Part shown: positions 3,361-3,526 of the stretch, one piece after another
Numbering within the stretch: position 1 is the stretch's first letter
Layout: the number at the start of each line of letters is the position of its first letter
DNA from: Armatimonadota bacterium
GTDB lineage: Bacteria > Armatimonadota > SYMT01
Direction: 5' to 3'
DNA length: 64,000 nt
NCBI GenBank assembly: GCA_046292385.1
Contig: JBKBRF010000020.1
Coordinates: 45,495-109,494, forward strand
The notes under the pieces: model-generated
Seen by the model: the letters and a program-made list of their open reading frames with translations, nothing else
The model's database searches: none
Told to the model about the DNA's origin: nothing
Program-made: the position numbers and the translations under genes

Positions 3361-3526
3361 GGGCCCTGAAGGCCCCGGCTGTATCCCAGGAAAGCACGCT
3401 GAAGCGCGCTGAGGGATGTTGGGCTTGCCCGTTTCCAGGCCGTCCGGGATCTCCTTCCGTCTGTAATCGGGCAGCCTGCTTCAGCAGGCTTACCCAAAAG
3501 GATCAGCCGGGTCCTTCAGGGCCTGG
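3361..3526. repeat. MITE-like element family A, copy 1 (about 166 bp): 11-bp terminal inverted repeats GGGCCCTGAAGG/CCTTCAGGGCC plus internal hairpin AGCCTGCTTCAGCAGGCT
   Basis: A second copy at 15340-15478 shares the blocks GGAAAGCACNCTGAAG, GCCAGCCTGCTTCAGCAGGCTTAC and CAGCCGGNTCCTTCAGGGGCC; it lies in a convergent intergenic region. Confidence 0.6.

Follow-up and report, generated by a model that had tools for sequence, protein, structure and literature searches.

A two-hairpin intergenic repeat in an Armatimonadota genome, probably a REPIN-like doublet linked to IS200-like Y1 transposases

A stretch of 64 kb from a metagenome-assembled genome (MAG) of Armatimonadota, referred to here as the window, carries two copies of an intergenic repeat of 150–175 bp, which we call family A (copy A at 3355–3530, copy B at 15334–15480). 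What kind of element is it, and what maintains it? An earlier note on this DNA described the repeat as a mobile, terminator-like element similar to miniature inverted-repeat transposable elements (MITEs). We find that each copy consists of two inverted units resembling repetitive extragenic palindromes (REPs), placed back to back around a variable spacer. With a probability of roughly two in three, family A is an extragenic palindromic doublet of the type represented by REPINs (REP doublets forming hairpins) and bacterial interspersed mosaic elements (BIMEs). Results on the source genome refer to the window.

Two inverted units in each copy

Both copies listed in the earlier note are present, and chance matches are excluded by shuffling. 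The pattern AGCCTG-N6-CAGGCT has three matches in the window against 0.00 expected (100 shuffles), and the 22-nt blocks GGAAAGCACNCTGAAGNGCGCT and CAGCCTGCTTCAGCAGGCTTAC occur exactly twice each, again against 0.00 expected. The inverted ends and the shared internal hairpin were confirmed as well. In copy A, GGGCCCTGAAGG lies at 3361–3372 and CCTTCAGGGCC at 3516–3526, and AGCCTGCTTCAGCAGGCT, the first hairpin (hairpin a) of the right-hand units, lies at 3473–3490 and 15425–15442. The palindrome of copy A (ACGCC...GGCGT) runs from 3356 to 3529, slightly longer than described before, with 17-nt arms and one mismatch. Pairwise alignment of A and B extends over the arms only, with a mean column identity of 76%; the centres differ in sequence and in length, the two inner hairpins being separated by 62 nt in A and 35 nt in B. 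The folding energy is −110.8 kcal/mol for copy A (z = −8.7), which can form one long hairpin, and −69.6 kcal/mol for copy B (z = −3.6), where local hairpins are preferred.

The unit is 57–61 nt long and has opposite orientations in the two halves of a copy, plus strand on the right and minus strand on the left. It reads 5'-AG-N4-C-TTCA-G-N4'-CT-T (hairpin a), followed by a linker of 8–14 nt, which measures 12–14 nt in the right half, and Y-A-G-CC-N5-TTNA-N5'-GG-C-G (hairpin b). In the window, hairpin b has a 9-bp stem, a TTCA loop, a CAG foot and a GGCG tail, and the full feet are TCAG, CCAG, ACAG and ACAG. There are four hairpins per copy, with sequences of the type AGCCTG.../GCCGGNTCC..., and every loop reads CTGAAG or CTTCAG. 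We searched for units with R1, a covariance model made from 33 aligned right-hand units of diverse unrelated genomes. The features are as follows, with R1 scores and expectation values (E).

3355–3413, minus strand: copy A left unit, with hairpin a, linker, ACAG foot, hairpin b and GGCG (R1 45.2 bits, E 1.7e-11)
3358–3379, minus strand: copy A left hairpin b, reading GCCGGGCCC-TGAA-GGCCCCGGC on the plus strand; equal to the left terminal inverted repeat (TIR) of the earlier note (sequence and R1 alignment)
3393–3410, minus strand: copy A left hairpin a, reading AGCACGC-TGAA-GCGCGCT on the plus strand
3411–3472, no strand: copy A central spacer, 62 nt, variable, not alignable to copy B (pairwise alignment)
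3470–3530, plus strand: copy A right unit, with hairpin a AGCCTGC-TTCA-GCAGGCT at 3473–3490, T, linker and CAG foot at 3504–3506 (R1 61.1 bits, E 4e-16)
3506–3527, plus strand: copy A right hairpin b, GCCGGGTCC-TTCA-GGGCCTGGC, then G; two G·T pairs on the plus strand
15334–15392, minus strand: copy B left unit (R1 37.8 bits, E 2.4e-9)
15337–15358, minus strand: copy B left hairpin b, reading GGCGGGCCG-TGAA-CGACCCGCC on the plus strand; its mismatch reads C·A on the plus and G·T on the minus strand
15372–15389, minus strand: copy B left hairpin a, reading AGCACCC-TGAA-GGGCGCT on the plus strand
15390–15424, no strand: copy B central spacer, 35 nt, variable (pairwise alignment)
15422–15480, plus strand: copy B right unit, with hairpin a at 15425–15442 and CAG foot at 15454–15456 (R1 64.3 bits, E 5e-17)
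15456–15477, plus strand: copy B right hairpin b, GCCGGCTCC-TTCA-GGGGCCGGC, then G
62513–62585, minus strand: degenerate third unit with a good hairpin b (CAG foot, GCGAGGTAT-TTCA-ATGCCTCGC) (R1 22 bits, E 9e-5)

Built from right-hand units only, R1 recovers both left units on the opposite strand at the E values listed. Between A and B, a G-C pair is replaced by C-G in a compensatory manner at the sixth pair of the left hairpin a and at the sixth pair of the right hairpin b. In the degenerate unit, a longer GGCCTG...CAGGCC hairpin stands in place of hairpin a. Besides these five units, the best R1 matches in the window are echoes of hairpin a on the reverse strand, at 3436–3493 (E 0.012) and 15411–15445 (E 0.028), and no further match reaches E 1e-2 or better in the 64 kb. 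The total for the window is two doublets and one degenerate unit.

The earlier note had also counted a stem upstream of recA as a third instance. The stem exists (AGCCTGTCCGAACAGGCT at 27256–27273, 74 nt before the recA ATG at 27347) and has six stem base pairs in common with hairpin a. We rejected it as a third copy or family member: it has another loop, it lacks a partner hairpin (hairpin b), and it scores 8.8 bits with R1 (E 0.65). It may be a relic, as six identical pairs are improbable by chance. At 27256–27295, the hairpin AGCCTGT-CCGA-ACAGGCT overlaps GAACA-N10-TGTTC. The latter might be an inverted repeat of the operator kind in the leader of recA, one that departs from the standard LexA box GAAC-N4-GTTC.

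Selection on the stems and the strand that folds

We aligned 45 units outside the seed with MAFFT and examined their 16 stem pairs. Two-sided changes occur in 14 of these pairs, 94% of the cells can pair, and the covariation score was matched by none of 500 shuffles. When the partner was moved by 1–3 columns as a control, only 25–47% of the cells paired. The units had been picked by a structure-aware model, which favours pairing, and the MAFFT alignment itself was not fitted to the structure. Both stems of the unit covary strongly, and the hairpins are under selection.

The mismatches reveal which strand folds. For this comparison, the sole criterion for choosing hairpin b was its Watson-Crick count, and its orientation was set by nothing but the 18-mer of the adjacent hairpin a. 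Among its non-Watson-Crick cells, 62 are G·T or T·G and none is A·C or C·A. After removal of duplicates, G·T is found in 40 of 73 distinct hairpins and A·C in 0 of 73. The mismatches in the left arms of the window fit the same rule; the sole mismatch in the left hairpin a of copy A, for example, reads A·C on the plus and G·T on the minus strand. Since G·T occurs without A·C, and a duplex palindrome would decay symmetrically, folding takes place on one defined strand, namely that bearing the TTCA loop with the 5' YAG foot, either as single-stranded DNA or as RNA. Such a strand-specific wobble signal offers a means of telling single-strand from double-strand function.

Related units and the Y1 genes that they bracket

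The 18-mer of hairpin a was found at at least 120 loci among species-representative genomes, several of which supply many loci; a back-of-envelope estimate for a collection of that size gives roughly 17 chance matches. The hosts include Chloroflexota, Armatimonadota, Gemmatimonadota, Sumerlaeota, Planctomycetota, Desulfobacterota, Acidobacteriota and others. The flanks of these loci show the same architecture with other stem sequences, and the double-hairpin unit is present in more than 60 MAGs from at least eight phyla. Scanning metagenomes with a 22-mer added 14 loci. In about 1 Mb of related loci, R1 gave 274 matches at E < 1e-4, including 116 that lack the seed 18-mer and are thus free of search-word bias; many related units share a genome and are therefore not independent. 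No R1 unit was found in 40 kb from the two nearest Armatimonadota relatives. Seven 18-mer matches in viral contigs scored about 26–30 bits, as the bare 18-mer does; they have no partner hairpin, stand at chance level and doubled as a control for the model.

Among neighbouring units at most 200 nt apart, 68 cases are oriented (-,+), with a median gap of 18.5 nt, 15 are (+,-) and 17 are tandem. The main arrangement, (-,+), is that of both window copies. Units are also found singly, in tandem and in either dimer orientation. The family-wide consensus of the foot is N-Y-A-G, with GTAG accounting for only about 10%. Entire doublets recur inside one genome as repeats of 130–200 bp, some of which have additional outer inverted repeats specific to the lineage. 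In OW818647.1, at least 13 loci contain the exact 18-mer, and some have further separate elements kilobases away from the seed. In some other genomes, doublets lie within longer repeats that have outer inverted repeats and possible 5-bp duplications (TATCC at locus L099, AGTAT at L042).

Two cases deserve a description of their own. In a Chloroflexia MAG (L020, about 100–420), an entire doublet with outer inverted repeats appears to sit inside the hairpin b loop of another unit, with CCGCCATAGGCT ... AGCCTATGGCGG on either side, which suggests that hairpin loops can act as insertion targets. In OY769902.1, a non-coding repeat of about 735 bp with many such hairpins occurs twice at 91% identity (L059, 4919–5652; L083, 6350–7083). 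It includes GGAAAGCACCCTGAAGGGTGCT, which is near-identical to hairpin a of copy B with its flank, in an unrelated genome.

Known families gave no match. At the gathering score, Rfam finds only a tRNA-Cys in the window and only one tRNA in 18 related loci. In a permissive Rfam scan of copy A, MIR1437 appeared as a spurious long-hairpin match (33 bits against a cut-off of 168 bits) and was discarded. We also dropped attC sites, as the element lacks R'/R'' GTT...AAC ends, and CRISPR repeats, as it lacks regular spacing. A literature search for the loop and hairpin sequence returned nothing relevant.

In order to find genes that travel with the units, we clustered the open reading frames (ORFs) of 120 loci all against all. 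The big clusters contain only common families as recurrent neighbours (response regulators and kinases, ABC ATPases, thioredoxins, aminotransferases) and are uninformative. A small cluster of three loci led to the Y1 gene: an ORF of 140–155 residues lies between inverted units in a planctomycete (L097), a Sumerlaeota MAG (L079) and a Phycisphaerales MAG (L103). All three proteins match the Pfam family Y1_Tnp (PF01797), and the two scanned against NCBIfam, L079 and L097, match transpos_IS200 (NF033573). A hidden Markov model (HMM) of the three proteins found no further Y1 copies in the roughly 1 Mb of loci.

We then took an independent set of five long-contig homologues, selected by protein similarity alone with the DNA disregarded (L137, L138/L139, L140, L141 and L142/L143). 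R1 units on the plus strand lie within about 150 nt upstream of the gene in 5/5, and strong R1 units on the minus strand lie downstream in 4/5, with E from 1e-8 to 1e-15. In all eight loci examined, each from another genome than the window's, a solitary IS200-like Y1 gene is bracketed by inverted units in a REPtron-like arrangement. The units face inward on both sides of the gene, whatever its direction of transcription. The Y1 genes stand alone among housekeeping genes, for instance between groEL and dnaJ, and at L138 (-,+) doublets like those of the window lie beside the gene. An alignment of 15 homologues gives the motifs (D/T)H[VI]H, WQxGYG and Y[VI]xNQ[KR]EHH. A search of all ORFs for the motif of REP-associated tyrosine transposases (RAYTs; HxH ... 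Y..NP) was empty, because these enzymes carry Y..NQ.

We notice that at L137 (1456–1509) and L097 (1775–1815) the Y1 start codon immediately follows a small GGCTTCAGCC hairpin, so that the innermost unit overlaps the translation start. This overlap may indicate autoregulation.

The window contains other repeats as well. Inverted pairs of intergenic tandem arrays with a period of 7–9 nt each bracket 20–250 bp, at the following sites.

10074–10155: tandem array
11824–11990: tandem array
15249–15295 with 15516–15551: tandem arrays
20109–20137 with 20262–20290: tandem arrays
24165–24285 with 3556–3590: tandem arrays
24595–24646: tandem array
62711–62733: tandem array

Copy B is bracketed by (GCCAGGG)x6.7 and (CCCTGAC)x5, and another array is (GAGACGGA)x15. 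In other phyla, heptamer arrays of this sort lie directly next to related hairpin units (L010, L040, L022, L115, L124), and the arrays resemble the STRR repeats (short tandemly repeated repetitive sequences) of cyanobacteria. A second repeat, with inverted copies at 24413–24464 and 62422–62465, has the hairpins GCGGAG-TGAA-CTCCGC and CGCCGGCAG-TCAA-CTGCCGGCG. It resembles a diverged relative of the unit, with weak R1 scores of 8–11 bits. A third, short repeat has inverted copies at 21602–21638 and 62604–62640 and a hairpin with a TTTCAA loop. The intergenic region at 62.42–62.65 kb is a BIME-like cluster, where the degenerate unit 62513–62585, the repeat at 62422–62465 and the TTTCAA-loop repeat come together. 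Units of an unrelated family, about 110 nt long (CGGGGCCGCWGTACGG...), stand in tandem at one site and recur at a distance of 12 kb (32279–32581 and 44487–44684), flanked by short repeats of the CGCAGAGA type. The tRNA-Cys (GCA) gene lies at 17372–17443, and a short way downstream of it 17699–18081 on the minus strand shows a 15-nt periodicity resembling pentapeptide-repeat coding sequence.

Explanations and comparison with known systems

The REPIN-like reading of family A can be put as a mechanism. The hairpins would act as single-stranded DNA structures, formed by the strand on which the TTCA loops and the 5' YAG foot are read. Their partner would be a small IS200-like Y1 (HUH) transposase with the motifs given above. 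Its single gene would lie at another place in the genome, between units of the same kind, and the enzyme would act in trans. The enzyme would cut and rejoin the units, and doublets would be copied or moved via single-stranded DNA at replication forks, without target-site duplications. Copies A and B would then be dispersed, REPIN-like progeny of such an enzyme, and effects on neighbouring mRNAs, such as 3'-end protection or roadblocks, would be secondary. Most likely this works as in IS608 TnpA and E. coli TnpA-REP, the analogy on which the mechanism rests; these enzymes bind the hairpin and cut beside it, using a foot or guide tetranucleotide (PMC6006769). A role as Y1 substrate accounts for arms that fold on themselves, for the conservation of foot and loops, for wobble restricted to one strand, for the lack of target-site duplications and for the intergenic position. 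The reading supposes a gene for this enzyme in the source genome, cleavage of the units by its product, and copies A and B that are or were mobile. The window copies are, on this reading, ordinary members of a two-hairpin REP-like variant; they are selfish or domesticated repeats, neither terminators nor regulatory RNA of their neighbours.

Several points weigh against this interpretation. The foot of REP/RAYT systems is GT[AG]G, versus N-Y-A-G here (CAG in the window), and the RAYT motif is Y---NP, versus the IS200-like Y---Q--HH of the bracketed enzymes. The enzyme subclass whose motifs these match, TnpA-Y1 subclass 1.2, is listed without REPs (Quentin et al., 2018; PMC6006769). G·T wobble fits RNA hairpins equally well. 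An HMM scan finds no Y1 gene in the 64-kb window. With only two full, diverged copies (76%, centres unalignable) and remnants in 64 kb, the window copies may be relics. The doublets nested in longer repeats hint at other mobilisation routes. Finally, no orthologous empty site was found in the loci compared: around PrfC homologues of 81% identity, synteny is lost and the loci lack elements, and in presence/absence pairs (L043 versus L007, and an all-against-all BLAST of loci) the alignments are confined to the elements.

Among the alternatives, the one that survives best, though we regard it as unlikely, is a host RNA element: bidirectional terminators or 3'-end stabilisers that act in transcripts and are kept for that role. 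Both copies lie downstream of at least one gene, as had been noted before. The neighbours of copy A converge (a cytochrome-c-like ORF at 2611–3240 on the plus strand and a DAHP-synthase-like ORF at 3597–4733 on the minus strand), and those of copy B are co-directional, prfC (15557–17164) and an ORF starting at 15241 both lying on the minus strand. The hairpins are GC-rich and stable, and their wobble is compatible with G·U. E. coli REPs, moreover, protect upstream mRNA. Di Nocera et al. (2013; PMC3733652) argued that REPs are transcribed. The terminator-like role proposed earlier has no support from scans of both elements, which found no T/U-run after any hairpin. The paired units of a doublet form their hairpins on opposite strands, and for copy B the highest-scoring unit (64 bits) is the one on the plus strand, which the flanking genes do not transcribe. 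Nor would an RNA role explain units that face inward around Y1 genes regardless of transcription, and Rfam has no match. Copy A, in addition, is preceded by a separate hairpin at about 3267–3300 that already follows the upstream gene. This GC-rich hairpin of 13 bp (CGGCCGCTCCTCC...GGAGGAGCGGCCG, then TTCCGTATT) begins 27 nt past the end of the cytochrome-c-like gene, ahead of copy A, and may serve that gene as terminator, though the terminator scan made no call there. As a side effect, the repeats may still terminate transcripts or stabilise mRNA, but nothing points to such a role.

A classical MITE, that is, a deletion derivative of an insertion sequence with a DDE transposase, recognised through double-stranded TIRs and making a target-site duplication on insertion, is less probable still. 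The inverted ends of copy A, the size of 150–175 bp and the intergenic position would suit it, as would the doublets of other genomes that lie in longer repeats with outer inverted repeats and possible 5-bp duplications. We inspected the flanks of A and B by eye and found no convincing target-site duplication at either copy. The arms are pairs of self-folding hairpins with covarying stems, needless for double-stranded TIR recognition, and G·T without A·C indicates selection on one strand. In the roughly 1 Mb of DNA, the only genes found bracketed by units are Y1 transposases, not DDE, and the neighbour-ORF clustering contains no DDE transposase, its recurrent ORFs belonging to housekeeping families. 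What stands of the MITE proposal is that the repeat is non-coding and non-autonomous, has inverted arms and is part of a larger family, with hundreds of related units in other genomes whose terminal hairpins are conserved; what falls is the classical form with TIRs and target-site duplications.

A small RNA gene of its own, or a cis-regulatory RNA, with a conserved fold of four hairpins is highly improbable. The very low folding energy of copy A (z = −8.7), the covarying stems and the complementary loops CUGAAG/CUUCAG, which could form kissing interactions, speak for it; against it, neither copy has a promoter-like site in or beside it, Rfam has no family, conservation does not extend to the centre, units can stand alone or form tandem pairs and dimers of both orientations, and the loop complementarity is a trivial consequence of inversion in a symmetric element. 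E. coli BIMEs bind gyrase and IHF, and the CTGAAG/CTTCAG loops and AGCC/GGCT feet are kept across phyla, yet immobile double-stranded binding sites for a nucleoid or topology protein need neither covarying stems nor a G·T versus A·C asymmetry and leave the bracketing of Y1 genes unexplained, so that this explanation too can be given very little weight.

REPs and REPINs are the best-known long-lived, vertically inherited bacterial replicators, and they have been tied almost entirely to RAYT-class enzymes and Proteobacteria. Our findings suggest that a second Y1 lineage, IS200-like and thought to be repeat-less, has its own two-hairpin repeat with another foot and conserved loops. It reaches poorly studied phyla (Armatimonadota, Chloroflexota, Planctomycetota, Sumerlaeota, Gemmatimonadota). 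The outcome is a concrete substrate for biochemistry of the Y1 enzyme, and R1 serves as an annotation model for common, unexplained intergenic hairpins in MAGs.

How does family A compare with the systems already described? It shares with REPs, BIMEs, REPINs and RAYTs of Proteobacteria the short, imperfect extragenic palindromes, a conserved foot on the 5' side of the hairpin, G·T wobble confined to one strand, a predominance of inverted doublets with variable spacers, the lack of target-site duplications and a solitary Y1 HUH gene bracketed by repeats. Both window copies are extragenic and lie between gene ends, as REPs and REPINs do. The unit differs in having two hairpins, not one, and the conserved loops C-TTCA-G and TTNA, and its hosts are Armatimonadota, Chloroflexota, Planctomycetota and other phyla. 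With IS200/IS605 elements and palindrome-associated transposable elements (PATEs), the units have in common a Y1 HUH enzyme, subterminal hairpins recognised as single-stranded DNA and no target-site duplication. However, the two ends of IS200/IS605 differ and fold on the same strand, whereas the arms here are inverted copies that fit the same model and fold on opposite strands, and the Y1 gene is solitary among housekeeping genes.

Part of the family may already be recorded under other names. Di Nocera et al. (2013; PMC3733652) described GTAG REPs in Chloroflexi (GTAG-23 in Thermomicrobium roseum) and double-palindromic inverted repeats around Y1 genes. The TIRYT/TIRtrons and GTAG families resemble the present units in their Y1 genes flanked by inverted repeats with self-complementary tracts, in a degenerate tagged REP joined to an unrelated stem-loop, and in dimers and clusters. 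The Thermomicrobiaceae loci L031 and L036 carry units. Most TIRYT repeats differ in carrying GGGGWSAS, and their enzymes are of class 2.1 with helix-turn-helix tails.

Class 3 and subclass 2.6 TnpA-Y1 enzymes (Quentin et al., 2018) are similar in being REPtron-like with non-GTAG hairpins ("atypical" structures). Class 3 occurs in Planctomycetes and Acidobacteria (PMC6006769) and is characterised by NHVH, W[TA], YV[VI]xEQ, a CnGA foot and a length of about 178 residues; its motifs are absent from the enzymes bracketed here.

The bracketed enzymes also bear comparison with subclass 1.2, a domesticated-looking clade of about 148 residues and low copy number, mostly from Cyanobacteria and Bacteroidetes (Table 1 in Quentin et al., 2018; PMC6006769). 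Our literature search found no later paper on this subclass. Their genes agree with it in DH[IV]H, WQ and YIKNQKEHH-like motifs, in their length of about 148 residues, in low copy number and in behaviour unlike that of an insertion sequence, the assignment being by motif only, set against that table. They differ in that 8/8 examined genes, all from other phyla, have flanking hairpin units. The odds are even, in our judgement, that the units are the cognate repeats of TnpA-Y1 subclass 1.2, forming a REPtron/REPIN-type system that spans at least eight phyla independently of the classical RAYTs, with the doublets of the window as its progeny.

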